In this document: positions 23,425-49,492 of the stretch, piece after piece
Layout: the number at the start of each line of letters is the position of its first letter
Position numbering within the stretch: position 1 is the stretch's first letter
Origin: an uncultured Chloroflexia bacterium
Lineage (GTDB): Bacteria; Chloroflexota; Limnocylindria; Limnocylindrales; CSP1-4
Length of the DNA stretch: 64,000 bases
Assembly (NCBI GenBank): GCA_963828165.1
Contig: CAWHDR010000005.1
Location: 96,001-160,000, forward strand
Direction of reading: 5' to 3'
Translations under genes and position numbers: made by a program
The notes under the pieces: model-generated
Seen by the model: only the letters and a program-made list of their open reading frames with translations
Database searches by the model: none
Told to the model about the DNA's origin: nothing

Positions 23425-24342
23425 TCAGGCCCGCGGATGGGCCCGGCGATAGACATCCCGGATCCGCTCCCCGGTCAGATGCGTGTACAGCTGGGTCGTG
23501 GAGATACTCGCATGACCGAGCAACTCCTGGACGACCCGCAGGTCGGCCCCACCCTCGAGCAGGTGCGTCGCGAACGAGTGCCGGAGCGTGTGCGGGCTCA
23601 CCCGGCCGCCGAGGCCGGCCCGCCTGGCCGCCGACGTCACGGCCGCCCAGGCCGCCTGCCGCGCGAGCCGCGCCCCGCGATCCCCGAGGAACAACGGTCC
23701 GCCGCGGACCGGCGACACGTGACTGTGGGCGAGGAGCGCGGGCCGCGGTCCATCGATCCAAACGATGAGCCAGTCCAGGGCGATCTCGCCGATGGGGACG
23801 AGGCGCTCCTTGTCGCCCTTGCCGATGACGCGCACGAACGCCCCCTCGAGCGACAGGTCCTCGCGATCGAGGCCGACGGCCTCGCTCACCCGCAGGCCTG
23901 CCGCGTACAGCAGCTCGAGCAGCGCCCGGTCGCGCACGCCGCGCTCGGACGCAGCCTCGAGCAGGCGCTCCACCTCGCCGACATCGAGCGTATCGGGCAA
24001 GCGTCGGCTCTGGCGGGGCAGGTCCAGGTGGGTCGCCACGTCTACGTCGATCAGGCCCTCGCCGAACGCGAATTGGTAGAAGCCCTTGAGCGCGGCCGCC
24101 CGCCGCCGCAGGCTCGTGGGGGCGAGGCCCGTATCGCCGCGGCGTCCGCGCTGGGTTCGGGCCGCGAGATAGCGCACGGCCGGGTCGGGCGAACGGGCCC
24201 ACGCACCGTCCTCGCCCAGCGACCCCCCGAAGTCCGTGAGATCGCCGCGGTAGGCGCGGATCGTGGCGGGCGCGAGGCCCCGCTCGACGTGAAGGTACGC
24301 GAGGTAGTCCTCGACGACCCGCTCGAGGGAGACGGTCGTCAC
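23425..24342 (-). CDS. xerD: Tyrosine recombinase XerD
   Basis: [39 protein letters not shown]. Confidence 0.9.
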
Positions 24343-26078
24343 GCCGGCCGGTCGGCCCCTGCCGAGCCGACGGCCGCTCCCCCGCCCCGCCAGGCGTCGG
24401 CCCGGTCGAGCAGCTCTCGCGCCGACGCCAGGGCCGCCGGATCGCCCGGACCGCCACCGAGCATCGCCGCGAGCTCGACGATCCGTCCCTCGCGATCGAG
24501 ACGCTCCACCTCGGTGACGGTGCGGCCATCGCGCTCGCGCTTGGCGATGCGGTAGTGCGCGTCGGCGTGGGCCGCGATCTGGGGCAGATGGGTGACGCAC
24601 AGGACCTGGTGTCGGCGAGCCAGACCCCACAGGCTCCTGCCGATCGGGTCGGCGCTGCGTCCGCCGATGCCGCTGTCCACCTCGTCGAAGACCAGCGTGG
24701 GCGTCGCGTCGGCTTCGGCCAGGATCCGCTTGATGGCGAGGGCGACCCGGGACAGCTCGCCGCCCGACGCGATCTTCGCGAGTGGCCGCGCCGGCTCACC
24801 CGGGTTCGGGGCGAGGCGATAGACCACTTGGTCGACGCCGGCCGCATCGAAGGCGACGGCGTCGCCATCGACCTCGACCGCCGCCTCGCCGGCGCCCGCC
24901 GTACGGCGCCCGACCGCCACTTCGAAGACGTCGGCCGGGAAACCCAGCTCCTCGAGGACCTCCCCCACCGCCGACCCGAGGCCCGTCGCCGTGCCCCGAC
25001 GAGCCGCCGACAGCGCCGTCGCGGCCGCCGCGACCTCGGCCAGCCGCTCGGCATCCTCTCGCTGGCGGCGCGCGCGCTCTTCGTCGAGGCCGCGCAGGCG
25101 ATCCGCTTCGAGGGAGGCTTGTTCGCCGTGCGCGATGACCGCCGCCTCGTCGTCGCCGTACCGTCGAAGGAGCCCGTGGATGACCCCAAGCCGAGCATCG
25201 AGTTCGGCGACTGCGCGCGGATCGTGGTCCACGCTCTCGGACAGGCGGCGCGCCTCCTCGGCGACGTCGGTCAGCTCCGCCTCCAGGCCGGCCAGTCGTT
25301 CGGCGAGCGGTTCGAAGCGCGGATCGAGTCGGGCCAGTCCGCGGGCCTCCTGCAGGGCGACCGCTGCGGTGTCTCGGGCGCCGGCTCCCTCCTGGGTGAG
25401 CGCTTCGCGCAGGGACGCGGCGCCCCGGGCGATCGCCTCGCCATGCTGCGCCGCCGTCAGACGGCCGCGGATCTCGTCCGCCTCGCCAGGTCGGAGGTGC
25501 GCGCCCGCGATCTCGGCCGCCTCGTGTTCGAGCAGGTCCAGGCGGCGGGCAACCTCTCGCGGATCCAGCGCGGCCGCGTCGAGCGCGGCCCGGTTCTCGC
25601 GCCAGCGCTCCACGGCACCCGCCATCGTCGCGCGCAGCTCGCCGTGGCCACCGAAGCCGTCGAGCAGATCGCGCTGCCAGCGCTCGTCGAGCAAACGTCC
25701 CTGGTCGTTCTGGCCATGCACCTCGACCATGGCGCCGACCTCGTCGGCCAGGCGGGCCGCCGTCACCGTGGCGTCGTCGAGGCGCGCCGTGGACCGGCCG
25801 CTCGCCGCGACCTCCCGGACCGCGATCAAGGGCTCGGGCATGCGATCGAACAGGGCCTCGACCCGCGCGGCCTCGGCGCCGTGACGCACCAAGCCGGTAT
25901 CCGCGCGGGCCCCCATGGCCAGCCCGAGCGCGTCGATCAGCAGGCTCTTGCCGGCCCCCGTCTCGCCCGTGATGACGTTGAGACCGGCGTCGAAGGCGAG
26001 GCGCAATCGGTCGATGAGCGCGAGGTCGGAGACCGTCAGCTCCAGGAGGCGCCCCGGGGTCGCGGTGTCGTCGCTCAC
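24339..26078 (-). CDS. recN: DNA repair protein RecN
   Basis: [27 protein letters not shown]. Confidence 0.96.
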
Positions 26079-26926
26079 GACGGCAGCAGCTCCACCTTGT
26101 GGCGTAGCAGGTCCCAGAACGAGAGGGCGCCGCGCGGGTGCAGGAGGCGGACCGGTCGTTCCAGCGCCCGCACCTCGACCACGTCCCCGACGGCGATCTG
26201 CAGGTCCTCGCGACCGTCGACCGACACCAGCGCCTCGTGCGCGTCGACGACGCGGCAGCGGACGACCTGCTCGGGGCCGACGACGACGGAGCGGAAGGCC
26301 GACAGGTAGGCGGCGATCGGGGTGACGATGAGGTTCCGGCTGACCGGGTCCAGGATCGGACCGCCGGCCGAGAACGAATACCCGGTGGAGCCCGTCGGGC
26401 TCGCGACGATGAGGCCGTCCGCGATGAAGGTCGCGAGATGCGTGTCGTCGATGGAGACGTCGAGCCGGCACACCCGGGCCAGCGATCCCCGGGCGATGAC
26501 GATGTCGTTGAGGGCCATGTGCCGGTCGGCGTCCCCTGCCCCGCCGCCTGAGGCACGCAGGATGCGGCCTTCGATGACCATGCGTTCGTCGAAGGTGAAC
26601 TCGCCGGCAGCGATCCGTTGGAGCACGGTCTCGAGGTCGCTGGCCTCGGCCTTCGAAAGGAAGCCAACCTTGCCGAGGTTGATCCCGAGGATGGGGACGT
26701 CCACCTCCGCCACGGCGCGCGCCGCCCGGAGGAACGTGCCGTCGCCACCGAGCACGATGAGCGCGTCGGTCGTCGGCAGCTCGCGCAGGAGTCGTTCGGT
26801 GTCGCCGGCTGGGCACTGCCACTCCCCGATCCCTCGCATCTGGCACCAACCCGCAGCTCGCGCGGCAAGCTCCGCGGTCGGCTCCTGGGTCGGGTTGTAG
26901 GCGAACCCGATGCGCGCGACGGTCAT
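26075..26926 (-). CDS. nadK: NAD kinase
   Basis: GGDGTFL, SPTGSTGYSFSAGG. Confidence 0.95.
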   Translation of the reverse strand: MTVARIGFAYNPTQEPTAELAARAAGWCQMRGIGEWQCPAGDTERLLRELPTTDALIVLGGDGTFLRAARAVAEVDVPILGINLGKVGFLSKAEASDLETVLQRIAAGEFTFDERMVIEGRILRASGGGAGDADRHMALNDIVIARGSLARVCRLDVSIDDTHLATFIADGLIVASPTGSTGYSFSAGGPILDPVSRNLIVTPIAAYLSAFRSVVVGPEQVVRCRVVDAHEALVSVDGREDLQIAVGDVVEVRALERPVRLLHPRGALSFWDLLRHKVELLPS

Positions 26927-27747
26927 GGAGTCGTGACCTCGGCGATCCGCTCGCCGATCTCGGCGCAGCCGGGGCCGGGCGCAAGGTGGATGAGGAACTC
27001 GCGATTGCCCTGGGGACCGAGGATCGGTGAGGCGATGACCGCGCGCGTGCCGAGGCCGTGTTCCGCCGCCACGGCGACGATCCGCTCGATTACCTCGCGG
27101 TGGATCTCCGGATCGCGCACGACGCCGTGGTCCGTCCGGCCCTTGCCCGCCTCGAACTGCGGCTTGACCAGGGCCACGATCGGCGCTTGCGGAGCAAGCG
27201 TGCTGACCACCGGCCCGAGCACCTTGTCGAGGGAGATGAACGAGACGTCGACGACCGCGAGATCCATCGGCTCCCGGAACGTCGCGCCGGTCAGGGTCCG
27301 TGCGTTCGTTCGCTCCATCGAAGTGACCCGTGGGTCGCGACGGAGCCGCTCGGCGAGCTGGCCACGACCGACATCGAGCGCGTACACGTGCCGCGCGCCG
27401 CGCTGGATCAGGACGTCCGTGAACCCGCCCGTCGAAGCCCCCACGTCCAGGACGGTCAGCCCGGTCGGGTCGATCCCGAACGCGTCGAGCGCGGCTGCCA
27501 GCTTGTGCCCGCCACGGCTGACGTACGGATCCGGCTGGGCCACCTCGATCGCGGTCGCGGGGTCGAGCGCGTCGCCGGGCTTGTGATCGAGGCGCGCCCC
27601 GTCACCGTCCCCGACCCGGACCTTGCCCGCCAGCACGAGCGCCTGCGCGCGGCTGCGCGTCTCCACCAGCCCGCGCTCGACCAGCAGCTGATCGAGCCGG
27701 ACGCGCGCGCTCCGGCGCTTGGGTCTGGCGACGGGATCCGGGGTCAC
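26923..27747 (-). CDS. tlyA: TlyA family rRNA 2'-O-methyltransferase
   Basis: RLDQLL S4 domain, YVSRGGHKL, GASTGGFTD, KPQFE. Confidence 0.95.
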   Translation of the reverse strand: MTPDPVARPKRRSARVRLDQLLVERGLVETRSRAQALVLAGKVRVGDGDGARLDHKPGDALDPATAIEVAQPDPYVSRGGHKLAAALDAFGIDPTGLTVLDVGASTGGFTDVLIQRGARHVYALDVGRGQLAERLRRDPRVTSMERTNARTLTGATFREPMDLAVVDVSFISLDKVLGPVVSTLAPQAPIVALVKPQFEAGKGRTDHGVVRDPEIHREVIERIVAVAAEHGLGTRAVIASPILGPQGNREFLIHLAPGPGCAEIGERIAEVTTP

Positions 27748-33984: not shown

Positions 33985-35217
33985 TCAGCCGGCTCCGACC
34001 ACCGTGACCTCGCTCGGGAACCGGGTCAGCCGCTCGACGCGGCCGGCCGGAGCATCGATGGCGATGAGGTCCTCGATGCGGACGCCCATCTGGCCATCGA
34101 GATAGACCCCGGGCTCGACGGAGAAGACCGTCGGGCTCGGGAGGGGTGTCTCCGCGGCGGCCTTCCCGAGTGACGGGGCTTCGTGGGTGGCGAGACCGAT
34201 GCCGTGCCCGGTGCTGTGGCCGAAGTGGTCGCCGTGTCCGCCTTTGTCGATGACCGCACGGGCGATCGCGTCCACGGCCCGGCCGCTGGGTATCTCCCCT
34301 CCTCCGCGCACGGCCTCATCGACCGCGCTGATCGCCGCCGCCTGGGCGCTGGCGACGAGCTCGTAGATCTCCAGATCCCGCGCCACCGGATCGCCCACGA
34401 ACAACGTGCGCGTCATGTCACTCCGGTACCCCTCGACCTGCGCCCCGAAGTCGAAGAGGAGCACCGAACGGTCCAGGACCGGTCGGTCGCCGGGGGCACC
34501 GTGGGGCAGGGCCGCTTCCGCACCTGACAGGCAGGCGACGTCGAACGCGAGCGCCTCCGCCCCACCGGTACGCATGTGCCATTCCAGCCGGAGCGCGAGC
34601 TCCGCCTCGGTCACGCCCGCACGGATCTCCGGCAGGAGCGCCGCGAGGGCCCGGTCGGCGACCGCACACGCCGCCGCGACGCGTTCCAGCTCGGCGGGCT
34701 CCTTGACCGCTCGATCGGCCTCGATCCAGCCCTCGACCGGGACGAGCTCGATGTCCGGCGCCGCGGCGGCCAGGCGCTCCCACGCCGCATGCGACACGAA
34801 CCCGGCCTCGACGCCGACCCGGCGAGCGCCGACGGACCGCACGATCTCGAGCCAGCGTTCGGGCAGGTTGCCGTAGGCCTCGAACAGGCGCGTGTCCGGG
34901 GCCTCGCGCCGGGCCTGGATCGTGTAGCGCGAATCGGCGAGGATCACGACCTCCTCACCCGAGACGAGGAACTGCCCGGAGTTCCCGGCGGACTTCTCCT
35001 CGCCCTCCGCGAGCGTGAACCCCGTCAGGTAGCGCATGTGCTCGCGCCGGACCCCGAAGTAGGCGTCGATGCCGGCGTCGGCGAACCTCGCGCGGAGGCG
35101 GCCGAGTCGAGCCGGGCGCGCCACACGATCGGACTCGGACCAGGCCTCCCGCTGCGCCGTGCCGGGTGGCGCGGCGAAATCCTCGGGGCGGGGCGACGCG
35201 CCCCGCGTCGCCCTCAT
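33985..35217 (-). CDS. Xaa-Pro aminopeptidase (M24B)
   Basis: DFGAQVEGYRSDMTRT, HSTGHGIGLATHE, EPGVY, GVRIED. Confidence 0.95.
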   Translation of the reverse strand: MRATRGASPRPEDFAAPPGTAQREAWSESDRVARPARLGRLRARFADAGIDAYFGVRREHMRYLTGFTLAEGEEKSAGNSGQFLVSGEEVVILADSRYTIQARREAPDTRLFEAYGNLPERWLEIVRSVGARRVGVEAGFVSHAAWERLAAAAPDIELVPVEGWIEADRAVKEPAELERVAAACAVADRALAALLPEIRAGVTEAELALRLEWHMRTGGAEALAFDVACLSGAEAALPHGAPGDRPVLDRSVLLFDFGAQVEGYRSDMTRTLFVGDPVARDLEIYELVASAQAAAISAVDEAVRGGGEIPSGRAVDAIARAVIDKGGHGDHFGHSTGHGIGLATHEAPSLGKAAAETPLPSPTVFSVEPGVYLDGQMGVRIEDLIAIDAPAGRVERLTRFPSEVTVVGAG

Positions 35218-36617
35218 CAGGTGTAGCCGTGTTCGCGCCGGTTCGCGTTGTGCTCGTCGAGATTCTTGGCGAAGACGTGCTTCCCGCTCTCGTCCGGGAT
35301 CGCGAGGAAATAGATGTACTTGTCGGCGGTGTCGGGATGCAGCGCCGCGTCGATCGATGCGAGGGTCGGCGTGTCGATCGGCGCGGGGATGAGGCCGGGC
35401 TGCGTATACGTCTGGAAGCCGAGCAGTTCGTCCGGGAGCACGATGTCCTTCATCCCGATGTCCTTGGGCACGGTCCAGAACCGGTAGTCCTTCCAGGTCT
35501 CGAACTCGAGATCCGAGAGGTTCATCGTGTCGACGGCATAGATGACCGTCGGGTCGGCATTGAAGATCTTGTTCCTGATCCCCGGGATGCCATCCAACCG
35601 GTTCTGGTACACCCCGGCGATCAGCGGCTTTTCCTCGTCGAGCTTGGCTTCGCGTTCGACGATCGAGGCGAGCGTCAGGACCTCGTAGAACGACAAGCCG
35701 CGCTCTTGCGGGACCGTCAGCTTGGCCTCCGTGACGGCGCCGATGAAGCCGTCGAGCATCCGGCGGATCAGCTCTTCGGGGGTGGTGTCGGGCAGCACGC
35801 GATAGGTCCCGGGCCAGAGGAACCCTTCCAGCGACGGTGTCGTGCCCTCCGGGACGTCCTCCAGGACCTTCTCCAGCCACGGGTAGTCCGCGAGCAAGGC
35901 GGCGGGCGGTTCCTTCGCCAGCTCGTAGAACTCGCGCGGGTCCATCTCCAGGGCCGGCACCGTCTGGAGCAACGCCGTGATCTGCTCAAGACGCAAGCCG
36001 GTTCGCAGCGCGATCTCCACGTAGGGCACCTCGGGCGGCGCGAGGAGCGCTACGACGAGCTGCTCCGGAGTCATGTTGCGACGAAGCACGAATGTTCCCT
36101 GCTGGAGATCGCCGGTCAGCTCACGGTCGCTGGCGATGAACACGAAGGCGCGTGGGTCCTTGATCAGGCCACCGGTGCCCAGACGCATGGCGATGGTGGT
36201 GGCCGTATCACCCTCCTCGACGAGGAACTCGACCTGCTCCGGGTCGTCGGACACGGGCTCCGTGAGCGATTCGCCGAGATCCTCGCGCACCAGATCGGCG
36301 ACGAACGGCAGGTTGAGCGCAGCCGGGCTGTCCGCGGCCCACGTGAGGATCGCGTTGTTGACCAGGGGTCGCAGCGCCGTCAGGCCGATGAGCAGCACGA
36401 GGCCGGCGAGGACCAGGGTGAACACGAGGAACTTGACGACGCCGCCCAGGCCGCTTCCGCCGCGGCCACCGCGCCGACCACCGCCGTTCCCATTGCCGGC
36501 TCTGCGTGACGGCTCGTAGGCCTCGGGCACGTAGTCGGTGGCATACGCGTCGGGGTCGAACCTTCGGCCGTGGGGCTGGCGCCGGTCGCGCGGGCGTCCG
36601 CCGGAGCGGATCGTCAT
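35217..36617 (-). CDS. mltG: Endolytic transglycosylase MltG
   Basis: LEGFLWPGTY, LASIVEREA, VYQNRL, DPTV.YA. Confidence 0.92.
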   Translation of the reverse strand: MTIRSGGRPRDRRQPHGRRFDPDAYATDYVPEAYEPSRRAGNGNGGGRRGGRGGSGLGGVVKFLVFTLVLAGLVLLIGLTALRPLVNNAILTWAADSPAALNLPFVADLVREDLGESLTEPVSDDPEQVEFLVEEGDTATTIAMRLGTGGLIKDPRAFVFIASDRELTGDLQQGTFVLRRNMTPEQLVVALLAPPEVPYVEIALRTGLRLEQITALLQTVPALEMDPREFYELAKEPPAALLADYPWLEKVLEDVPEGTTPSLEGFLWPGTYRVLPDTTPEELIRRMLDGFIGAVTEAKLTVPQERGLSFYEVLTLASIVEREAKLDEEKPLIAGVYQNRLDGIPGIRNKIFNADPTVIYAVDTMNLSDLEFETWKDYRFWTVPKDIGMKDIVLPDELLGFQTYTQPGLIPAPIDTPTLASIDAALHPDTADKYIYFLAIPDESGKHVFAKNLDEHNANRREHGYT

Positions 36618-37114
36618 GTGGTGGTCTCCGGTGTGCTGGGTCGGGGACCGGGCGCGGACCCGGCATGTCGCATGTCGAGGGCATCTTGCAGGATGACGGC
36701 GGCCGCTTCGCGGTCGACGCGCGCCCGGTACTCATCGCGCTGGTGACGCGACGGTGGACCGCCCGAGCGACCGCGTTTCATCGGTCCAAGGCGCGTCTCG
36801 GCGACGTGGCTGCTCAGCCGCTCATCGTGCAAGGTGATGATGACATGGTCGCCCAAACGGGCCCGCATGTCCTCCACCCATGCTCTGGTCAGCGCGGCCT
36901 GGGGACCCTCGTGCCCGGCCGCATCGATCGGGAGCCCCACCACCAGCTCGGTGATCTCGTGGGCATCGATGAGCGCGAGAAGCGCATCCGAATCCATGTC
37001 GGCGTGGCGGCCGCGGCGAAGCGTCGTCAGCGGACGCGCCCCGACGTCGGGGCCGTCGGCGATCGCGACGCCGATGCGTCGCTCCCCGAGGTCGAGGCCG
37101 AGCGCTCGGGTCAC
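36614..37114 (-). CDS. ruvX: YqgF/RuvX pre-16S rRNA nuclease
   Basis: LGLDLGERRIGVA, VVGLP, DERLSS, D..AA.VILQ. Confidence 0.93.
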   Translation of the reverse strand: MTRALGLDLGERRIGVAIADGPDVGARPLTTLRRGRHADMDSDALLALIDAHEITELVVGLPIDAAGHEGPQAALTRAWVEDMRARLGDHVIITLHDERLSSHVAETRLGPMKRGRSGGPPSRHQRDEYRARVDREAAAVILQDALDMRHAGSAPGPRPSTPETTT

Positions 37115-39105
37115 GGCGACGCCTCGGGTTCGCCGCTCGGTGTCTGGTCCTGGGCGGGGTCGGAAGTCGTGATCTCGACCCGTGACTCGATCGTCGGGAC
37201 GGTGCCGACCCAATCGGGCCAGACCGTGAGCTGGGCATCGCCGTACCGAGCCAGGATCTCGCGCGCCTGGGCGAGCGGCTTGCCCATGATCTCGGCCTCG
37301 ATCGCATCCGAATCGAGCACGAGGACCTGGCGCGCCGTGACCACGACCGGGAAGGTGATGACGCCGCCGGAGATCTCGGCGGGTGCGGGGACCACTTGCC
37401 CCGAGCCAGGGATCAGCTCGTAGCCCGGATCGACGCTCGACGCGATCCGGGCCTCGGCCACGGTCTGGACGGGCGTCGTGTCCACCGCCACGACCGTCCC
37501 GGAGGCGGTCGCCGACAACTCGAAGGATTCGACCTCCTGTCCCACGAGCGTGGCCGGGTCGACGCCGTAGACCGGGGCGCCGAGGGTCTTGGTCTCAGGG
37601 AATACTGTCGTCGCGTCGCCAGGGAGGGCCGGGTCGTCCAGGCGCTCGTCGAACGCCGCGCTGAGCTGGTCGGTCAGGGCCGCGGTCGCCTCGTCGACGT
37701 CCTCCTGCTGGACCCGCGGGAACTCGGTCCGCTTGCCACCGGTCGTCGCCTCAGGATTGGTCACCTTGAGGAAGAATGGCTCTTCGTCGCGCGGGACCGT
37801 CGTGATCGCGCGCGGTTCGACGTTCCCTTCCGGGCCCGCATCCACCGCCGTGACCGTGACGGAAGCGCGGCTGGGGACGATCGTGAGCCCGACGAGCTCG
37901 GCAGGTGGGACACGCACCGCGCGGTCGGTGCGAAACCGGATCCCCGACCCCGTACTGACGACGCTGCCCCGCGGCACGGTGTTCGAGCTGGTCGGGTCGA
38001 GGTTGTCGAACCGGACGCTGCCCGTCGCCTTGGCCTCCTCGATCCGCTTGCCGGTGGCGGGAAACGTGTCGCTGGCTTCGACATCGATCGTGACCAGCTG
38101 GGCCGGCACGACCGGCGGCGTGGCGCCCGCATCCGGCGCCGTGGCGGTGACGCTCGCGACGATCCGCAGCGACTCGGGGCCGATGGTGCCTTCGCGGGGC
38201 GCGATGACGGCGGTCGCCGTCGGGAGGTACAGGAAGGCGGCCGCGCCACCAACGACGAGGGCGAGCGCGACCACGGCCAGCCCGATGACGAGCGGCGTAC
38301 GACCGATGGACGGGCGGAATGCCCGGCCGACCGCCTCCGGCCGGATCGCCCCGGGACGGTCCCCTTCGATGGCCGGCGTGTCCGCGACGACCCGCGCCGC
38401 CGGGATCGCGGCGGGCCCCCGACCGGCCCGTTTCGGTTCTCCCCTCGGCGGTGCGGACGACCGCGGTCCTCGGTCGGTCGCTGGGGTGGTACCCGCGTCC
38501 ATGCCTGGGGTCGCCATCCCAGCACCCGCGGCCGCGCCGCCAGCCATCGCCGCACCGGCAGACGCCGCAGACGCTGCGGCCAATGCCCCTGCGGCCGCAG
38601 CGGCGCCGGCGGAGGACCGGTCCTTGTCCGGCGTGGCGTCGGGCCGATCCTTGTCCGGCGCGCGCGCTTTCGACCTGGGCGTCGCGACTGTCTCGCTGAC
38701 CAGGGTCCCGTCCGTGAAGTCCTCATCGCCGATGGCGGCGTCGTCATCCGGCCCGTCAGCACCCGACGCCACGCCGGAAGCGACCGCCCCGGCCAAGAGC
38801 CCGGCCTCCCCCTCGGTCCCGGAGCGGTCCTCGTCCAATGAGGACTCGTACTCGCCGACGGTCGCAAAGATCGGCAGGCCCGCCGACGCGGCCAGTGCCC
38901 GCGTGGCGCCGTCTCCCGCCACGATCGAGAGCCGCTTGCCGTTGGTCAGCGCATCGCGCGCCAGGAGACGGAAGTTGATGCGCGAGGTGGCCACCCGCGA
39001 GCCGTACGGCAGCACGACCGCCACCCGGCTCCCCTCCGACGATCGGATGCGAGCCGCCGCCGAGGTGATCTCGTCATCGATGTCGAGGTAGATGACACCG
39101 GCCAT
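37111..39105 (-). CDS. Membrane-anchored baseplate J/gp47-like protein
   Basis: N-terminal IYLDIDDEITS domain, Ala/Pro-rich linker, one TM helix, then KATGSVRF..VPRG.VVST..FRT..V.AVDAG.EGNV..I..VTNPEATTGG, typical of baseplate-J-like domains. Confidence 0.78.
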   Translation of the reverse strand: MAGVIYLDIDDEITSAAARIRSSEGSRVAVVLPYGSRVATSRINFRLLARDALTNGKRLSIVAGDGATRALAASAGLPIFATVGEYESSLDEDRSGTEGEAGLLAGAVASGVASGADGPDDDAAIGDEDFTDGTLVSETVATPRSKARAPDKDRPDATPDKDRSSAGAAAAAGALAAASAASAGAAMAGGAAAGAGMATPGMDAGTTPATDRGPRSSAPPRGEPKRAGRGPAAIPAARVVADTPAIEGDRPGAIRPEAVGRAFRPSIGRTPLVIGLAVVALALVVGGAAAFLYLPTATAVIAPREGTIGPESLRIVASVTATAPDAGATPPVVPAQLVTIDVEASDTFPATGKRIEEAKATGSVRFDNLDPTSSNTVPRGSVVSTGSGIRFRTDRAVRVPPAELVGLTIVPSRASVTVTAVDAGPEGNVEPRAITTVPRDEEPFFLKVTNPEATTGGKRTEFPRVQQEDVDEATAALTDQLSAAFDERLDDPALPGDATTVFPETKTLGAPVYGVDPATLVGQEVESFELSATASGTVVAVDTTPVQTVAEARIASSVDPGYELIPGSGQVVPAPAEISGGVITFPVVVTARQVLVLDSDAIEAEIMGKPLAQAREILARYGDAQLTVWPDWVGTVPTIESRVEITTSDPAQDQTPSGEPEASP

Positions 39106-39106
39106 C

Positions 39107-40369
39107 TCAGACCTTCATCGCGCGCAGGACGCGCCGCAGGGCGACGTCGAGGGCATCTTCCGACGTCTGCAGCTCGATCGCCTGGTACGCCAGCCCAAGC
39201 GGCGTGACGTCCTGCTGGTCCACGAGCAACGCCGTCGCATCGATCACGGTCTCGATCAGGTTCGGCGCCATGACGATGACCTCGGGCGGCCGGGCGAAGG
39301 GCATCGGCTTCCAGAATGCCTCGGCTGCCAACGCCGCCTGCACCTCCGGGAGCCGCGAGCCACCACCGCACAGGTAGATGCGCGACGGCAGCAGGTCGCC
39401 CCCGGACAGCTCCTCCATCACGAGCTCGACGCCGGCCGCCCAGACCCGTACGTCGTCGCCGATGATCCCGGCCACCTCGTCGCGCGACTCGACCGGCAGC
39501 CCGCGCGCGTAATCGACCTTGAGCGCCTCGGCTCGGGGAAACGGCAGGTCGAGCCGGTCGGCGAGCGACTTCGTGAACGCCCGACCGCCGAGCGCGAACA
39601 TCCGCGTCCCCTCGATGCCACCCTGGCGCACGAGGGCCACGTCGGTCGTCCCGCCACCGACATCGACGAACAGCGCTCCGCCCTGGCGGACCTGCTCGAG
39701 GCCGAGAACGCGTGCCACCGCATAGGGCTCGGCGACGATCTCGAGCAGCTCCAGGTCCAGCTGCGAGGCCACGCTCTGCAACGCCCCGAGGTGCACGAGT
39801 GGCGCGAACGCGTTGAAGATCCCGATCTTCACGTGGCGGCCCTGGAATCCCACGGGGTTCGTGAGCGCGTAGCCGTCGATGGCGGCGCCAGTCACGGCCG
39901 CGTGGACCAGCCTGACGTCGACGTGCGGCAGCCCTGTCTCCCACGTGATCGCCCGTTCGGCCTCGCGGAGGGCCTCGCGCTGCACGGAGTCGATGAGCTT
40001 CTGGAGCTCGTTCTCGGTGATCGGCTGGTCCGGCTTCTTGCGTTCCTGGCTGTGGGTCGTGGTGAAGCCCTTCACCAGCTCCCCGGCGATGCCGATCACC
40101 ACCTGGCTCGGCCGAAAGCCCGCCATCTCCTCGGCTTCCTGCAGCGCGATCGAGCAGTTGTCGACCACGGCCGCGATATCCGCGACCGTTCCAGACTGCA
40201 TGTGCGCGAGGCCCTGCCGCTTGCGGCCCACGCCGCGGACCGTGCCCAGGCCCGAATCGTCGATCTCGAAGACGAGGGCCTTCGCGAACTCGGTGCCGAT
40301 GTCGAGCGCGGTGCAGACGGCGAGGCTGTCGCCCTCATCCCGTTGCCAGATCTTGCGCCAGAAGGCCAC
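39107..40369 (-). CDS. FtsA-like actin-family ATPase
   Basis: ALDIGTE (phosphate 1), AEPYA, DVGGGTTD (phosphate 2), LCGGGSRL; SHS2/1C-like insert ending IDGY..NPVG. Confidence 0.88.
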   Translation of the reverse strand: MAFWRKIWQRDEGDSLAVCTALDIGTEFAKALVFEIDDSGLGTVRGVGRKRQGLAHMQSGTVADIAAVVDNCSIALQEAEEMAGFRPSQVVIGIAGELVKGFTTTHSQERKKPDQPITENELQKLIDSVQREALREAERAITWETGLPHVDVRLVHAAVTGAAIDGYALTNPVGFQGRHVKIGIFNAFAPLVHLGALQSVASQLDLELLEIVAEPYAVARVLGLEQVRQGGALFVDVGGGTTDVALVRQGGIEGTRMFALGGRAFTKSLADRLDLPFPRAEALKVDYARGLPVESRDEVAGIIGDDVRVWAAGVELVMEELSGGDLLPSRIYLCGGGSRLPEVQAALAAEAFWKPMPFARPPEVIVMAPNLIETVIDATALLVDQQDVTPLGLAYQAIELQTSEDALDVALRRVLRAMKV

Positions 40370-40430: not shown

Positions 40431-43202
40431 TCACCCGGCCTCGAGCTGCCGGACGATCGCTCCACGGATCGAGGCGAGCGCGTCCGCGATACCCGCGCGG
40501 TCGGTGCCCATCCCCTGCGCCATCTGGGGGCGGCCGCCGCCCTTCGCCCCGATCGGCGCCGCCGCGGCCTTGACGAGTTCGCCCGCCGAGATCCCGCGTT
40601 CGACGAGATCGTCCGACACCGTGACGAAGAGCTGCGGGGCGTCCGCATCGAGCAGCAGGGCGATGACGCCCGACTCGAACGCTGCGCGGACCGCCTTTGC
40701 TGCGGCCTTGAGCGCCTCGGTCAATTCGTACGGGATCGCGGCCGCGACCAGCCGGACGCCCGGCGCGACCTCTTCCGATCTCGCGGCCAGCTCGGTGGGC
40801 TGCGGCACACCCGAGGCCGCGCCCGCCTTCAGGCGGCGCTTCGTCTCTCGGAGCTCGTCCAGCAGCGCCGCGATGCGGTCCTCGACGGCGTCGATCGTCT
40901 GTGCACCGACCGCTTCGACGACGCGCTCCAGCGTCTCGCTGCGCTCTCGCGCGAGTCGATCGGCCGCGGCCCCGGTGACGGCCTCGATGCGGCGCATCCC
41001 GGAACCGATGCTCCGCTCCCCGGTGATGTTGAAGCCACCGATCTGACCGGTCGCCCGGCAATGGGTCCCACCGCACAGCTCGAAGCTGTAGTCCTGGACT
41101 CGGATGGTCCGGACGGTCTCGCCGTATTTCTCGTCGAAGAAGGCGTCGGCTCCCTGCTCGATGGCTTCGGCCATCGGCATGAACGCGATCGTCACGGGGC
41201 GATCGTCGCGAACGATGCCGCGGACCTCGTCTTCGATGGCCTGCTTCTCGTCGTCCGTCAATGCCCGGTCGAACGGGTAGTCGAACCGCAGGCTGTCGGG
41301 GGTCACGAGCGACCCCGCCTGTCGCGCCCCCTCCCCGACCACGTTGCGCAACGCCCGGTGAAGCAGGTGGGTGCCCGTGTGGTTGCGCATCGTGTGGGCG
41401 CGACGTTCGGCATCGACGATCGCCTCGACGGTCTCGCCGACGCGTAGCCGGCCGTGGAGCGTGCCACGTTGCACGATCAAGCCGCCGACCGGCTTCTGCG
41501 TGTCGGTCACGGTGAACAGCTCGCTGCCGCCGCCCGGTTCTCGGATCGTCCCCTGGTCTCCGACCTGCCCACCGCCCTCCGCGTAGAACGGGGTGCGGTC
41601 GACTACCACCTCGGCTGCGCCGTTCCCGGTCAGCTCGTCGAATTCCACGCCGTCGCGCACGATCGCCACCACCCGGCCCTCGGCGGTGGTCGTCTCGTAG
41701 CCCATGAACGCGGTGTCGCCGTGGCGTGCCTGGATGGCGCTGTACAGCGACGTCGATTCCGCGTGCCGGGCGAGGTCGGCCTTCTTGCCCGAACGGCTGC
41801 GCTCCCGCTGCTCCGCGAGCGCGTCCTGGAACCCGGCAAGGTCGACCGTAAACCCGTATTCCGCGGCGAGCTCGACGGTCAGGTCGACCGGGAACCCGTA
41901 CGTGTCATGCAGCCGGAACGCGACGTCGCCGTCGAGGGCCGGTGCATCGCCCGGCAGGTCCTCCGGCCGGCGTCCGATGACGCGCTCGGGCGTCGTCCCG
42001 CCGAACGCATCGCGGATGGCCCCGTCGAGCAGCTTCGAGCCGGCGTCCAGGGTCCGGGCGAACTGGGCTTCCTCGCGCAGGATCGTGACCAGGATCGCGT
42101 CCCGCTTCTCGGCCAGGTGCGGATAGGCCTCGGCCATGGTGTCGATCACGACCGTCGCCGTCTCGGCCATGAACGGCTCGCGCCGACCCAGCAGCCGGCC
42201 GTGGCGAACGGCTCGACGCAGGATGCGACGCAGGACATAGCCCCTCCCCTCATTGCCCGGAAGGACGTCATCAGCGATGAGGAACGTGACGGCGCGGGAG
42301 TGGTCCGCGATGACCTGGTAGCTGAAACGCTCCTGCTCGAAGGCGTCCGGGTCGTGACCGAGCAGCTCCTGCATCCGGGCGTGGATCGGCGTGAACACGT
42401 CCGTGTCGTAGTTGGTCGGTACCTGCTGGAGGACGCTCGCGAGGCGCTCGAGACCCATCCCGGTGTCCACGCCTGGGGCCGGCAGCGGCACCAGCGAGCC
42501 GTCGGGCTGCAGATCGAACTCCATGAACACGAGGTTCCAGATCTCGAGCCAGCGCGGGCACTGCTCGCTGTGGTCGGGCACGCAATGCGGGCCCTCGCTG
42601 AGGTGTTCTCCGCGGTCGAAGTGGATCTCGCTGCACGGCCCGCACGGCCCGACGTCGGCCATGCGCCACCAGTTCTTCTCGTCGCCCTTGGGGAAATCGC
42701 CCCAGCGGACCAGGCGCTCTTCGGGCAGGCCGATCTCGTCGCGCCAGATGTCGAAGGCGACGTCGTCCGTCGTGTAGGTCGTGGCCGCCAGCCGTTCGCC
42801 CGGGATGCCCAGGTCGCGCGTCAGGAAGTCCCACGCGTAGTGGATCGCCTCGCGCTTGAAGTAGTCGCCGAAGCTCCAGTTGCCGAGCATCTCGAAGAGC
42901 GTGTGGTGACGCGGCGTGCGGCCGACCTCCTCGAAGTCGTTGTGCTTGCCGGCCACGCGCAGGCAGCGCTGGTAGTCGACCGCGCGCTGGTAGCTGCGCG
43001 TCTCGGCGCCGGTCAGGACGTCCTTGAACTGGACCATCCCGGAGTTCGTGAACAGGAGCGTCTGGTCACCCGCCGGCACCAGGCTGGCGCTGGGCACGGG
43101 CGTGTGGCCTCGCTCGGCGAAGAACTCGATGAAGCGCCGCCGGATCTCGCCGGACGGCAGGGACGTGATCCGGGGATCGCGGGTGACGGGTGGGGTCGGC
43201 AT
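40431..43202 (-). CDS. alaS: Alanine--tRNA ligase
   Basis: LLFTNSGMVQFK, FEMLGNWSFGDYFK, HTGTHLLH, ELCGGTH, GGGRPQMAQG. Confidence 0.98.
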   Translation of the reverse strand: MPTPPVTRDPRITSLPSGEIRRRFIEFFAERGHTPVPSASLVPAGDQTLLFTNSGMVQFKDVLTGAETRSYQRAVDYQRCLRVAGKHNDFEEVGRTPRHHTLFEMLGNWSFGDYFKREAIHYAWDFLTRDLGIPGERLAATTYTTDDVAFDIWRDEIGLPEERLVRWGDFPKGDEKNWWRMADVGPCGPCSEIHFDRGEHLSEGPHCVPDHSEQCPRWLEIWNLVFMEFDLQPDGSLVPLPAPGVDTGMGLERLASVLQQVPTNYDTDVFTPIHARMQELLGHDPDAFEQERFSYQVIADHSRAVTFLIADDVLPGNEGRGYVLRRILRRAVRHGRLLGRREPFMAETATVVIDTMAEAYPHLAEKRDAILVTILREEAQFARTLDAGSKLLDGAIRDAFGGTTPERVIGRRPEDLPGDAPALDGDVAFRLHDTYGFPVDLTVELAAEYGFTVDLAGFQDALAEQRERSRSGKKADLARHAESTSLYSAIQARHGDTAFMGYETTTAEGRVVAIVRDGVEFDELTGNGAAEVVVDRTPFYAEGGGQVGDQGTIREPGGGSELFTVTDTQKPVGGLIVQRGTLHGRLRVGETVEAIVDAERRAHTMRNHTGTHLLHRALRNVVGEGARQAGSLVTPDSLRFDYPFDRALTDDEKQAIEDEVRGIVRDDRPVTIAFMPMAEAIEQGADAFFDEKYGETVRTIRVQDYSFELCGGTHCRATGQIGGFNITGERSIGSGMRRIEAVTGAAADRLARERSETLERVVEAVGAQTIDAVEDRIAALLDELRETKRRLKAGAASGVPQPTELAARSEEVAPGVRLVAAAIPYELTEALKAAAKAVRAAFESGVIALLLDADAPQLFVTVSDDLVERGISAGELVKAAAAPIGAKGGGRPQMAQGMGTDRAGIADALASIRGAIVRQLEAG

Positions 43203-43337
43203 CGGCCGCAATGGTACCGAACCGGACCGGGCCATCTCTGTTACGCATCCGCTACCCCGCTTTCGGAAGCGCTGATGCCCTGGCCAGCCGCGATCGGTCA
43301 GGGTCGTTGCGTGCGATACGCAGCACAAGGAGATGTC

Positions 43338-46480: not shown

Positions 46481-48205
46481 CTAGGGCGCGTACTCGAGCG
46501 CCCGCTTCAGGAACGCCGCCATCTGCCCGCGCGTCACGCTGGATGTCGGGCAATACCGCCGTGTCCCGCAGCCGCCGGTGATGCCCGCGGCAGCCAGTCG
46601 GTTGATCGAGGACTCGCCGGTCTTGCCGTCGTCGTCATCGAAGAAATCCGTGCTCGTCGCGGGCGGATCGAGCTCCTTGTCGAGGAAGATCGCCATCTCG
46701 GCGCGGGTGACGCGGCGGGTCGGGCAATAGAGCGTGGGGCTACCGCAACCGCTCGTGATGCCGGCCGCCCGCAACGCGTTGATCGAGGATTCGCCGGAGC
46801 GACCCTCATCGTCGGTGAAATAGTCGGTGGCGGTCGAGGGATGATCGAAGGCGCGCACGAGGAAGATCGCCATCTGCTCCCGCGTGACGGCTGCCGACGG
46901 GCAGTACCGGCCGCTCCCGCACCCGACCGTGATGCCCTCGTACAGGATCCAGTGGATGCTGTCGAGGAACGTGGAGGTCGCGATGTCCTTGAACTCGGGG
47001 GCGATGACCCGATACAGGGAGCCGTTGAGATCGGTCAGGTAGAGCTCGCCGGATTCGCTCTCGCCGAACGAGCTGATGTTGAGACTGGTGTCCCTGCGAA
47101 CGGTGATCGTGCTGCTGCCATTCCCCATCGTCCAGATGCGGCCGCTGCAGAAGTCGCCGAACACGTAGAGACCCTGCAGGTCACGGTGCGTCCCGCGGTA
47201 GACGTAGCCGCCGGTGATCGAGCAGCCCAGTGAGTGCGTGTACTCGGCGACCGGCAGGATGTCATTGGCCGGGGGCGTACAGCCCGAGACCCGGCAGTGC
47301 TTGCCTTCCATGACGTCCCAGCCGTAATTCCCGCCGCCCGCGAAGCTGTTCAGTTCGCGGTTGATCTCCTCGTAGCGGTCCTGACCGACATCGGCGATGA
47401 AGAGATTCCCGTTGGCGCGGTCGAAGGCGATGCGCCACGGGTTTCGCATCCCCCAGGCCCAGATCTGGTCGGCGCCGGTCTTGCCCACGAACGGGTTGTC
47501 GTCCGGGATCGCGTAGTTCGGGTGGCTGGAGGGGCCAGCGTGATTGACATCGATCCGCAGGATCTTGCCGAGCAGGACATTGCGGTCCTGGGCGTTGTTA
47601 CCCGGGTCGTTGGCGCCGCCCCCATCGCCCACGGCGATGTAGAGGTAGTTGTCGGGGCCGAAGGCGAGGCCACCGCCGTTGTGGTTCGTATTTGCGCTGT
47701 GCTCGATGCGCAGCAGCGGGACCTCGGTCGTCAGGCTCACGGCGGTCTTCGTTGAGTTCGCGGTCAGCTTACTGACGATGATGTCGCCATCGGTCCTGGT
47801 GTAGTAGACGTACAGCAACCGGTTGGTCTCGAAGTTGGGATGGAACGCCAGGCCGAGCAGGCCTCGCTCGCCACCGGCCCTGATCCTCGAACTGATGTTG
47901 AGGAAGGTGCCCGTCACTGCGCCACCCTTGACGACGCGAACCCGGCCGCCGCGCTCCACGACGAACAGGCGGCCGGAGCCATCCTCGGCATGGGTCACCC
48001 CGAGCGGGCTGCTGAGGCCGCCGGTGACCTTGACCACGGTCAGCTGTCCCGAAACGAGCGCCGCTGGCTCGATGGTCTCGGTGGTGCGCTCAACGGGCGC
48101 CGCGACCTGGGGCTCGTGTGCGGCCACGGGGATCACGCTGACCACGGTGGCGGCAGCCGCCAGGATGGCCGGCAGGACGGTTCGCAGGTGGCGTCGGGTC
48201 ATCAT
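46481..48205 (-). CDS. Secreted PQQ-dependent sugar dehydrogenase-like beta-propeller with three SLH repeats
   Basis: Signal peptide; GERGLLGLAFHP, NHNGG.LAFGPD, GMRNPWR, DVGQ, NYGW; C-terminal IT.GC..YCP..VTR.QMA repeats. Confidence 0.92.
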   Translation of the reverse strand: MMTRRHLRTVLPAILAAAATVVSVIPVAAHEPQVAAPVERTTETIEPAALVSGQLTVVKVTGGLSSPLGVTHAEDGSGRLFVVERGGRVRVVKGGAVTGTFLNISSRIRAGGERGLLGLAFHPNFETNRLLYVYYTRTDGDIIVSKLTANSTKTAVSLTTEVPLLRIEHSANTNHNGGGLAFGPDNYLYIAVGDGGGANDPGNNAQDRNVLLGKILRIDVNHAGPSSHPNYAIPDDNPFVGKTGADQIWAWGMRNPWRIAFDRANGNLFIADVGQDRYEEINRELNSFAGGGNYGWDVMEGKHCRVSGCTPPANDILPVAEYTHSLGCSITGGYVYRGTHRDLQGLYVFGDFCSGRIWTMGNGSSTITVRRDTSLNISSFGESESGELYLTDLNGSLYRVIAPEFKDIATSTFLDSIHWILYEGITVGCGSGRYCPSAAVTREQMAIFLVRAFDHPSTATDYFTDDEGRSGESSINALRAAGITSGCGSPTLYCPTRRVTRAEMAIFLDKELDPPATSTDFFDDDDGKTGESSINRLAAAGITGGCGTRRYCPTSSVTRGQMAAFLKRALEYAP

Positions 48206-48208
48206 GGG

Positions 48209-49492
48209 TTAGCCCTCCGGTGGAGCCGCGAATGCGCGGTACAGGAATGCGGCCATCTGGCCGCGGGTGACACGTTCCTTGGGGCAGTACAGGTCCGGGC
48301 CGCAACCGCCCGTGATGCCGGCTTCGAACAGGCTGTCGATGTCGCGCTCATGCGTCGATCCGTTGTCGTCCCTGAAATGGTTGGGGTTCACCGCCGGTGG
48401 CAGGTCGAGCGTCCTCACGAGAAAGCTCGCCATCTGGCCGCGGGTGACCGTGTCATGCGGGCAGTAGCGGCGGACGCCGCAGCCACCGGTGATGTGCGCA
48501 GCGGCCAGCCGATTGATCGCCGCCTCGCCGGTGGCGCCATCGTCGTCGTCGAAGAAATCCTCGTCGGTCGGCGGCAGGTCCGTCGCGCGGTCGATGAACA
48601 TCGCCATCTGGGCGCGGGTCACGGCATTGCCGTAGCAGTACATGTCCACGAAGCAGCCGGTGGTGATCCCGTTCGCGAACGCCCACGCGATGTGGGTTTC
48701 GAACGTCGTGCCCTTCCAATCGTTGATGCAACCGGTCCCGCGACTGACCACGGATACCGATGTGCCGCTCGAGCCGAACCGCACCTTCGTCCAGCCGCAC
48801 CGCCCCGTCTCGTCCTCCTCGAGGAACCAGTCGTTCGGGTCGGACATCGCGCGGACCGTGTACGTCCCGCCCGGCAGTCCGGTGATGTCGATCCACTGGT
48901 GCGGGAGGCTCCAGCGGTACGTATCCGCCCAGCCGACCGAGATCCCGGTCCGCGACGTCAGGGCCGTCCGGCCACCACACCACGATTCGCGGTAATGCGG
49001 ACTCCCCGGCGAGCGAGGCAGGCTGGGCGACCACAACGTCGTATCGAAGAAGCAGAACCCGACCTTGCGGTCGGTCCTGGTGCCGTGACCGGACCACAGG
49101 TGGTACGCCATCATGCTCTTGACGTGCCAGTGGTTGTGGCCGTCGCCCCCGTACATCAGCGTGGCCTCGGTGTCCATCCGCCGTTCTCCGCCGGACGTGT
49201 TGTCGATGACCTGCCGTACACGCCAGGGAGACGAGCTACTGGTGCGCTGCGCCAGGATCTCGATGGGGCCGGCGCCCTTGTTGATGAGGATGCCCGTGAA
49301 CCGCAGGAGTCGCCGGCCGTTGCTGTTGACGATCCGGAACTGGGACGGGCTGGCCGCGCTCAGGTCGGGGAGTCGGTCGGCCGCCGCCGCGGCCTCAGGC
49401 GTCGCCCACGTTGGCACCAGGGCGATGAGGGCAAGGGTTGCGGCGAACAGGAGGCGTCGGACGGACCCCCGGCCCGTTTGGCGCTTCGTCAC
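48209..49492 (-). CDS. Secreted lysyl oxidase family protein with three SLH repeats
   Basis: Signal peptide; LPDL, LLRF, HNHWH, KVGFCFFD, GISVGWADTY, QWIDITG; SLH repeats. Confidence 0.88.
   Translation of the reverse strand: MTKRQTGRGSVRRLLFAATLALIALVPTWATPEAAAAADRLPDLSAASPSQFRIVNSNGRRLLRFTGILINKGAGPIEILAQRTSSSSPWRVRQVIDNTSGGERRMDTEATLMYGGDGHNHWHVKSMMAYHLWSGHGTRTDRKVGFCFFDTTLWSPSLPRSPGSPHYRESWCGGRTALTSRTGISVGWADTYRWSLPHQWIDITGLPGGTYTVRAMSDPNDWFLEEDETGRCGWTKVRFGSSGTSVSVVSRGTGCINDWKGTTFETHIAWAFANGITTGCFVDMYCYGNAVTRAQMAMFIDRATDLPPTDEDFFDDDDGATGEAAINRLAAAHITGGCGVRRYCPHDTVTRGQMASFLVRTLDLPPAVNPNHFRDDNGSTHERDIDSLFEAGITGGCGPDLYCPKERVTRGQMAAFLYRAFAAPPEG

Follow-up and report, generated by a model that had tools for sequence, protein, structure and literature searches.

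The 64,000-nucleotide stretch analysed here (positions 96,001 to 160,000 of contig CAWHDR010000005.1, assembly GCA_963828165.1; in the following, the window) contains a gene pair encoding an FtsA-like ATPase and a membrane-anchored protein that resembles the J-type wedge proteins of contractile-tail baseplates. The named relatives of the window point to the Chloroflexota, class Limnocylindria, and the host assembly consists of six contigs with a completeness of 87.7%. The designations FtsAL (FtsA-like ATPase) and BpJ (664-residue baseplate-J-like protein) were coined in this analysis. On balance, it appears probable that the FtsAL-BpJ locus is a conserved, unstudied envelope module of the Chloroflexota in which FtsAL positions or clusters BpJ into an extracytoplasmic scaffold. 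BpJ would be the core part of this module, with a J-type domain outside the membrane on a flexible tether and a transmembrane helix, and with a STAS-like domain in the cytoplasm. Its gene would hold a fixed place between alaS and ruvX(-mltG) and be co-translated with them, and FtsAL would serve as a dedicated partner encoded directly upstream in about one third of the sampled genomes.

The minus strand carries five genes between 35217 and approximately 43235, in the order alaS, FtsAL, BpJ, ruvX, mltG. The gene for alanyl-tRNA synthetase (alaS, 40431..43235; Pfam tRNA-synt_2c 3e-190, tRNA_SAD and DHHA1) has its stop codon at 40431-40433; its start is uncertain, as the open reading frame extends to 43364 and an ATG at about 43235 fits the beginning of the first domain. 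A gap of 61 nucleotides separates alaS from FtsAL (39107..40369), which starts with GTG and encodes 420 residues. The FtsAL stop codon TGA is followed after a single nucleotide by the ATG of BpJ (37111..39105), the gene for the 664-residue bitopic membrane protein. The BpJ stop and the start of ruvX (YqgF; 36614..37114, GTG start; PF03652 7.6e-28, 98 bits; TIGR00250 68.5 against a cut-off of 43.25) have the four nucleotides GTGA in common, and ATGA is likewise common to the ruvX stop and the start of mltG, encoding a YceG-family endolytic transglycosylase (35217..36617, ATG start; PF02618 3.9e-60, 204 bits; TIGR00247 137.7 against a cut-off of 103.4). All these junctions were read from the DNA, and gene order, coordinates, spacer and both overlaps are as given in a first-pass annotation that had been made from the letters of this stretch.

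BpJ shows a single transmembrane peak at about residues 272-292 in a Kyte-Doolittle plot. Because arginine residues are situated just before it, on the N-terminal side of the helix, the sequence implies a topology with the N-terminus inside and the C-terminus outside. An invariant proline, Pro295, is found just after the helix. In an AlphaFold2 (AF2) model built on an alignment of 33 sequences, an N-terminal cytoplasmic domain (residues 1-95, 38821..39105) with a predicted local distance difference test (pLDDT) value of about 96 is followed by a linker (residues ~96-269, 38299..38820) that stays below a pLDDT of 50 from residue 98 to 269, by the transmembrane helix (residues ~270-292, 38230..38298) and by an ectodomain (residues ~293-664, 37114..38229) with a pLDDT of about 95 over residues 296-650. 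The linker is dominated by alanine, glycine and proline (A46, G26 and P17 of 173 residues) and is predicted to be disordered. Its length varies by lineage, and the first residue of the ectodomain lies between about 130 and about 540 among homologues. BpJ proteins of some 870-900 residues occur in family f23 among relatives of Thermogemmatispora and Ktedonobacteraceae (L141-L143, L152); here, the ectodomain begins at about residue 490-540 and the linker has about double the length of that in the window protein. The architecture originally read from the translation, i.e. a small cytoplasmic alpha/beta domain, a low-complexity linker, one transmembrane helix and an ectodomain, is thus recovered by hydropathy and structure prediction.

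When modelled alone, the N-domain of BpJ reaches a pLDDT of 97.1 and has the order beta-alpha-beta-alpha-beta-alpha-beta-alpha. Its best fold matches are STAS domains, as they occur in SpoIIAA/RsbV anti-sigma antagonists and as C-terminal domains of SLC26 proteins, at Z 7-8.3, a range that does not rise above background and may merely reflect a common arrangement, the match at rank 50 still having a Z of 6.2. Examples are 9ikv_A (Z 8.2), 7b0u_A (8.1), 4qtp_A (7.9) and 4xs5_A (7.8-8.3), each covering 87-97 residues at a root-mean-square deviation (rmsd) of 2.6-3.5 Å. The likeness does not extend to sequence: a Pfam search with seven BpJ N-domains gave nothing above cut-off and no STAS family up to E 10, and a comparison with PDB sequences yielded nothing credible and no STAS chain up to E 10. 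Polyubiquitin rows in the latter search are an artefact made up of sums of repeated 4-bit stretches. In the N-domain alignment, no conserved serine or threonine follows the conserved Asp65, the surroundings of which we compared with what we take to be the phosphosite of SpoIIAA. In the predicted models, the N-domain may be called STAS-like in fold only. A relationship to SepF was considered and dropped; no SepF chain appears among the listed fold matches, itself no exclusion, there is no Pfam match and the host genome gave no match for SepF. An Atlas search with the N-domain returned short Chloroflexota hypothetical clusters only (0.82-0.87) and was uninformative.

The ectodomain relates BpJ to baseplate wedge proteins. 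The Pfam family Baseplate_J (PF04865) matches residues 358-461 only, with E 3.4e-7 and 30.3 bits against a gathering threshold of 21.1, corresponding to profile positions 21-113 of 255. The baseplate wedge profile phrog_6 matches at 1.2e-11, and a BpJ profile finds gp47 of phage Mu (9ki1_H, 4.5e-6) and a phi812 chain (9euf_C, 2.6e-5) in the PDB. These sequence profile ties are limited to a stretch of about 100 residues. A beta-barrel at residues 353-461 (37723-38049) contains a G-x-x-G-N motif common to baseplate wedge proteins. In VIA comparisons, the barrel superposes on wedge proteins of A-1(L), phiCD508, P1, Mu, XM1, AFP and T4, with Z values of 9.8-14.2 for all except T4 and an rmsd of 1.9-2.9 Å for A-1(L), Mu and XM1. 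Individual rows are 8kea_b (Z 14.2, rmsd 2.9, 100 residues aligned), Mu gp47 9ki1_H (Z 11.8, rmsd 1.9, 91 aligned) and T4 5iv5_B (Z 8.3, rmsd 37.0, 165 aligned). Baseplate wedge chains from Mu, phi812, phiCD508, A-1(L), diffocin, AFP and T4 occupy the top rows of Foldseek and VIA. The Foldseek alignments comprise 345-354 columns, with J-type chains of 346-386 residues as targets (E 2e-8 to 2e-5, TM-score only 0.21-0.25); the 382-residue target 8kea_d, for instance, is aligned over 347 columns at E 2.2e-8. The whole-length VIA span sets BpJ residues 354-648 against target residues 76-345 with 139-147 residues aligned. In the model, the domain order of BpJ therefore looks J-like along its whole length, with a poor rigid-body fit outside the barrel, and the baseplate-J fold that the first-pass annotation had assigned to the ectodomain is supported by profiles (Pfam, phrog, PDB) as well as by structure comparison. 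The barrel as such is not confined to baseplates. Residues 357-456 of BpJ superpose on residues 148-256 of GlxA, a radical copper oxidase from Streptomyces, at Z 14.3 and an rmsd of 1.8 Å, and a weak Pfam match to the GlxA beta-barrel (PF21110, 0.0099) is also present. GlxA shares the barrel alone with BpJ, which lacks the oxidase domain. With wedge proteins of the P2 gpJ, Mu gp47 and T4 gp6 class, BpJ has the barrel and the motif in common, and Foldseek aligns it to nearly the full length of J-type chains. It differs from these proteins in being anchored in the membrane behind a cytoplasmic domain, in its chromosomal, housekeeping setting and in an inter-domain geometry unlike that of assembled baseplates (TM-scores 0.2-0.25).

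Matches to Baseplate_J and phrog_6 and structural similarity to phage baseplates are what a remnant of a prophage, a tailocin or a contractile injection system (CIS) would also show, as would a superinfection-exclusion gene. We nevertheless regard this origin as extremely unlikely. BpJ itself is the one PF04865 match in the host genome, as far as assembled (87.7%), the gp25 family (GPW_gp25) is without a match there (the search did not extend to the gpI/TssG, sheath and tube families), and tblastn of BpJ against 50,697 phage records gave no match. The G+C content of the locus (about 0.70-0.72) matches that of its flanks in a window that has about 70% G+C throughout. BpJ furthermore occupies the same position across the phylum and carries an added cytoplasmic domain and a transmembrane helix. 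The surroundings are of the housekeeping kind, with aspS, typA, mnmA, an iscS-like gene, efp, xseA/xseB and dxs within about 12 kilobases. The lack of phage genes nearby that had been noticed at the outset stands, the sole phage-type family among the neighbours being a tyrosine recombinase (23425-24630, minus strand). Because of the single PF04865 match, the lack of gp25-family and phage tblastn matches and the housekeeping neighbours, we conclude that the BpJ locus is not a prophage remnant. In genome G223, the BpJ ectodomain profile has a second, weak match away from alaS (L140:8248-10329; 31 bits, barrel only), which, to judge from its sequence, could be a genuine baseplate J gene of a phage or CIS.

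FtsAL belongs to the FtsA family. It matches Pfam FtsA (PF14450) at E 2e-14, and FtsA is also its best-scoring named family, with 104.7 bits (E 5.3e-30) for TIGR01174. The motifs that we take to be phosphate 1 (DxGT; D23, G25, T26), phosphate 2 (DxGGGTTD, 236-243) and adenosine (GGG, 335-337) are well preserved among 11 orthologues, the first in at least 90% of them and the two others invariantly, in line with the actin-type ATPase that had been recognized in the first reading. The alignment to TIGR01174 is unbroken over positions 3-256, and the alignment to the FtsA of the host continues through the 1C (SHS2) region. Pfam SHS2_FTSA does not match FtsAL; 'SHS2 domain-containing protein' is the UniRef name of a 98%-identical relative of one orthologue. 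At its C-terminus, FtsAL has an amphipathic helix of 14 residues that is conserved and cationic, with a hydrophobic moment of 0.56-0.69 and a net charge of +2 to +4 in all 11 orthologues; its moment lies at the 98th percentile within the protein, and the C-terminus of host FtsA has a value of 0.58.

FtsAL is not the divisome FtsA of this organism. A canonical ftsQ-ftsA-ftsZ cluster, in which ftsA is preceded by an ftsQ-like gene and followed by ftsZ, is located elsewhere in the genome on contig C1, and its FtsA attains 423.3 bits against TIGR01174. FtsAL is 24% identical to it and stays below the curated cut-off of 175.85. Given the canonical cluster, the score and the identity, FtsAL is, by its sequence, an extra FtsA-family paralogue. 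No linkage to ftsZ or ftsQ was found in any locus examined. Both FtsZ matches of the genome and the ftsQ-like/ftsA pair reside on C1, the window on C5, so that the earlier description of FtsAL as an orphan ATPase without ftsZ or ftsQ in the window is upheld. The remaining FtsA-model matches in the genome are DnaK and two MreB proteins, the latter being paralogues of 350 and 332 residues (L003:1141-2190 and L004:1171-2166). One of the two FtsZ matches is a second full paralogue of 452 residues with Tubulin and FtsZ_C domains (C1:991325-992254; L008:1183-2541, minus strand), flanked by genes for an HxlR regulator and a NUDIX protein. In summary, FtsAL and FtsA have actin-fold nucleotide motifs and the C-terminal helix in common and can be aligned through the 1C region; they differ in score, in the genes adjacent to them and, as set out below, in the predicted partner, which for FtsAL is a folded STAS-like domain.

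An actin-fold ATPase gene followed by that of a bitopic partner is also the layout of pilM-pilN, and weak PilM matches are indeed obtained with FtsAL. Still, we consider it very unlikely that FtsAL and BpJ are an alignment pair of the PilM-PilN type serving a type IV pilus, competence or secretion apparatus. The scores remain below the cut-offs for PF11104 (18.4 bits versus 27; E 0.0011) as well as TIGR01175 (28.7 versus 133; E 6.4e-7), PilN (PF05137) has no match in the host genome at its completeness of 87.7%, no pilus or secretion genes occur in any locus read and the cytoplasmic part of BpJ is a folded domain of 95 residues rather than a short peptide.

Binding of FtsAL to the cytoplasmic domain of BpJ is supported by structure prediction. 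When FtsAL was modelled with residues 1-100 of BpJ, each with its own alignment, the interface score ipSAE was 0.65, 0.68 and 0.65, and the best of three controls reached 0.01. The score mark applied is passed by 116 of 157 solved complexes and by 2 of 215 mismatched pairs, counts that are rough for user-supplied alignments. At least 96% of the contacts recur between the runs, and the pLDDT of the partner is 83 or higher. No solved complex of this type is known to us, and we judge it unlikely that the pair passed through model memory. On the side of FtsAL, the predicted interface comprises residues 258-272 and 305-317 as well as 54, 58-59, 97-98 and 143-147; on the side of BpJ, the N-domain contributes its helices 1-3. 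When FtsAL is aligned to host FtsA, its main patch falls in the region that we take to be subdomain 2B, where canonical FtsA presumably binds the tail of FtsZ. Conservation of the N-domain points in the same direction. Among FtsAL-positive lineages, the 22 interface positions are as conserved as the other positions (1.58 versus 1.54), and among FtsAL-negative lineages they are far less so (0.27 versus 1.08). The difference of differences amounts to 0.86 with a position-shuffle p of 0.004, on the basis of 20 FtsAL-positive and 18 FtsAL-negative sequences that remained of 35 and 21 after thinning at 60% identity. This pattern is the one expected if the face of the N-domain is used only where FtsAL exists. 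Both lines of evidence speak for the contact, suggested in the first-pass annotation, between the ATPase and the first ~95 residues of its partner.

FtsAL orthologues are present in 92 of 301 sampled genomes at E <= 1e-40 and are concentrated in certain families, namely f1 (14/15), f3 (13/15), f5 (2/2), f7 (13/13), f14 (2/2), f17 (5/6), f21 (3/3), f22 (9/9), f23 (20/21) and f26 (4/4). The tallies over 301 genomes and the count of FtsZ matches given further below include G038, G145, G173, G227 and G272, which are flagged as unpublished and on which alone no claim rests; G173 is also part of the by-eye comparison mentioned below. The closest named relative of FtsAL from f23, with 98% identity, comes from Thermogemmatispora argillosa, and others belong to Ktedonobacteraceae. 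Public names of the orthologues are inconsistent and include FtsA, 'rod shape-determining protein' and SHS2-domain protein. BpJ accompanies FtsAL closely. A scan of contigs with the FtsAL alignment gave 504 loci, the best 80 of which are all of a close Limnocylindria type; BpJ follows FtsAL directly in 79 of these 80, and the remaining locus ends at the FtsAL gene. The same holds for 12 of 12 loci from six other families and, in a by-eye comparison, for 52 of the 54 genomes with both positions listed, the two exceptions being split over short contigs. Similar gene pairs in Chloroflexota, mentioned in the first reading, do exist. In a tree of BpJ ectodomains, the FtsAL-linked rows make up a clade of 20 (support 91/75) and a pair (98/96), and the FtsAL label changes twice, compared with 14.7 times for shuffled labels; the tree left out L019 and L020, the contigs of which end upstream, and matches spanning fewer than 250 profile positions. 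As far as sequences can tell, this fits a long vertical co-inheritance of the pair in one large part of the phylum.

Three loci or genomes (L130 and L148 from f5, G061 from f14) carry a divergent FtsA-like gene directly upstream of BpJ, the product of which shares 31-34% of its residues with FtsAL and reaches 247-248 bits against the FtsAL profile. Two genomes of genus g12 in family f3 (G046 and G106) have neither an FtsAL nor a BpJ match, BpJ having been looked for by strict single-sequence search only, and are in this respect unlike the 13 others of the family; each contains two FtsZ matches, their relatives one. G046 and G106 could be usable as a natural loss comparison. An alaS-FtsAL-BpJ arrangement is furthermore found on a contig of 2,057 bases that is titled Candidatus Methylomirabilota bacterium (L060). 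Its FtsAL is 85% identical to that of the window, and the contig is probably of Limnocylindria origin and was binned into another phylum.

BpJ is distributed more widely than its partner. The strict single-sequence search finds it in at least 147 of the 301 Chloroflexota genomes, a lower bound. In an exhaustive profile search, the number of clusters (50% identity) is 7,348 at E <= 1e-30 and rises to 17,811 at E <= 1e-3, where phage proteins may be among the weaker matches. In all 36 loci that were picked by BpJ match outside the window's own family, BpJ has alaS, ruvX or mltG as a neighbour, and the prevailing gene order is alaS-(FtsAL)-BpJ-ruvX-mltG. The N-domain is recognizable in 43 of 47 BpJ-bearing loci scanned, with or without FtsAL; two of the four loci without a match (L019, L020) stop at contig ends. 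Relatives of BpJ are publicly named 'baseplate J/gp47 family protein' or 'hypothetical protein', and the protein-search matches listed for BpJ and FtsAL are all from Chloroflexota where named. Two Atlas clusters (0.90-0.91, unaligned) with Saccharimonadota as the commonest taxon give a tentative lead towards a presence in Patescibacteria, which the first reading had mentioned. In one genome of family f27 (G165), an open frame of 235 residues downstream of alaS (L123:8914-9618) matches the N-domain only, with no match to the ectodomain; by its sequence, it may encode a truncated or very divergent BpJ.

Several observations weigh against the module as proposed. BpJ is found without FtsAL in 23 of the 36 BpJ-picked loci and keeps its N-domain there, FtsAL being present in the other 13, and five complete or near-complete FtsAL-negative genomes with BpJ contain only FtsA-family matches of 26-30% identity. 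FtsAL is therefore dispensable for the core function of BpJ, and the N-domain has a further role. Co-conservation of the pair, as claimed at first, accordingly stands for FtsAL, which is always found beside BpJ where DNA is available, but not for BpJ. A second claim, the link to mltG, holds for adjacency and overlap in the window, yet proves weaker than proposed: in L121 and L122, alaS, BpJ and ruvX remain together and the retrieved sequence contains no MltG match, the one in the genome to which L121 belongs (G231) being elsewhere on the chromosome, and two families (L137, L138) possess alaS-ruvX-mltG without BpJ even by profile search. Close named relatives of the L121 BpJ are from Chloroflexus and Oscillochloris. 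Since the BpJ-mltG link is not universal and the operon also exists without BpJ, the neighbourhood says little about function. Finally, the score of the predicted complex is the model's own confidence and not a measurement, the conservation test is without a correction for phylogeny, and the rigid-body match of the ectodomain outside the barrel is weak, with TM-scores of 0.2-0.25 and very large rmsd values (above 30 Å in Foldseek).

The loose tie to mltG brings up the reading that BpJ is a protein of the surface or envelope that has nothing to do with peptidoglycan, i.e. an anchor, adhesin or receptor-like scaffold, for example of an S-layer or sheath, with FtsAL as a mere regulator and an accidental position in the operon. 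In baseplates, the ectodomain class joins other structural proteins, SLH-domain surface proteins are encoded in the window, BpJ remains next to alaS and ruvX where mltG is missing as a neighbour, and the alaS-ruvX-mltG cluster is also found without BpJ. We hold this reading to be unlikely in view of a position that is strongly fixed and translationally coupled in a housekeeping operon across many families. Furthermore, MltG is found in 264 of the 301 genomes, and those families without an MltG match (f11, f19, f29) are also without a BpJ match, though this concerns few lineages. A role of BpJ in wall growth or division is favoured by the same two observations, the tight coupling to ruvX-mltG and the absence of BpJ from the MltG-less families.

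A division role could take the form of a divisome accessory, with FtsAL as a second FtsZ tether or FtsA-like regulator and BpJ as a late bitopic protein similar to FtsN or FtsQ that links the Z-ring to septal wall remodelling near MltG. FtsA is, after all, the closest named family of FtsAL, the C-terminal amphipathic helix resembles that of host FtsA, the operon is shared with mltG and the host genome has a second FtsZ match. In spite of this, a divisome accessory appears quite unlikely to us. FtsAL is nowhere linked to ftsZ or ftsQ, the predicted docking site for BpJ covers the very 2B-aligned region that we take to be occupied by the FtsZ tail in canonical FtsA, and BpJ is widespread without FtsAL. 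Two or more FtsZ matches (E <= 1e-40) were counted in 6 of 35 FtsAL-positive versus 60 of 86 FtsAL-negative genomes among 121 sampled, these being matches and not copy numbers in related, non-independent genomes. A pairing of FtsAL with the second FtsZ was discarded as an idea, since two or more FtsZ matches are commoner in genomes that lack FtsAL.

The envelope module in which FtsAL positions BpJ remains our preferred reading, and its operation can be pictured as follows. FtsAL would bind ATP and attach to the membrane by way of its C-terminal amphipathic helix. It would then dock with the 2B region, residues 258-272 and 305-317, onto the cytoplasmic domain of BpJ and thereby position or cluster the latter, so that the ectodomains would form a scaffold in the zone of the cell wall. 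ATP use, membrane binding and polymerisation of FtsAL, oligomerisation of the ectodomains and the cellular process served, which may be wall growth, division or surface organisation, are conjectural parts of this picture. In baseplates, gp6/J proteins form wedge- or ring-like oligomers. A corresponding assembly of BpJ ectodomains into wedge- or ring-like oligomers outside the membrane, driven or positioned by a new actin-like FtsAL polymer, is conceivable, albeit improbable. The same logic, an actin-fold protein holding the cytoplasmic end of a single-pass partner, is met in PilM-PilN, GspL-GspM, FtsA-FtsN and MreB-RodZ and is predicted here for FtsAL and BpJ. The two proteins are not members of any of these pairs by sequence, and STAS-like and J-like domains occur in none of them.

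Further features of the window deserve brief mention. Two adjacent genes (46481-48205 and 48209-49492, minus strand) encode SLH-domain proteins, one with a glucose/sorbosone dehydrogenase domain and the other lysyl-oxidase-like; by sequence, this pair points to SLH-anchored surface proteins in the organism. The tyrosine recombinase at 23425-24630, which consists of Phage_integrase and a SAM-like N domain, could be XerC/D or the integrase of a mobile element, and the open reading frames after it (24555-26309 and 26618-27586) have no Pfam match. Sequencing runs sharing words with the locus are from soil DNA only, with small shares of 0.05-0.15, and no RNA run is among the matches listed.

Little is understood of the envelope and growth machinery of the Chloroflexota, a major phylum in the environment. 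BpJ, with thousands of sequence clusters and a fixed place in a core operon, is apparently unstudied and marks a clear gap; in the literature searched, which did not cover subscription journals, we found no description of the BpJ family or of the FtsAL-BpJ pair. The proteins themselves are already held and named in databases, albeit under inconsistent names, and PF04865 matches of the BpJ kind should not be annotated as prophage. Relatives of cultured organisms make the pair testable, Thermogemmatispora for FtsAL and Chloroflexus and Oscillochloris for BpJ alone. Seen together, FtsAL and BpJ combine an actin-fold protein with a bitopic partner, and their parts are not known in this role from elsewhere. 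If binding occurs as predicted, FtsAL would be a new actin-fold protein that has a membrane partner of its own. The module, if it exists as proposed, would represent an unrecognized system in the Chloroflexota that couples the cytoskeleton to the envelope and, within the literature searched, the first housekeeping use of the contractile-tail baseplate fold. It would then suggest that either a phage tail protein was domesticated in ancient times or the baseplate wedge fold arose in cells.

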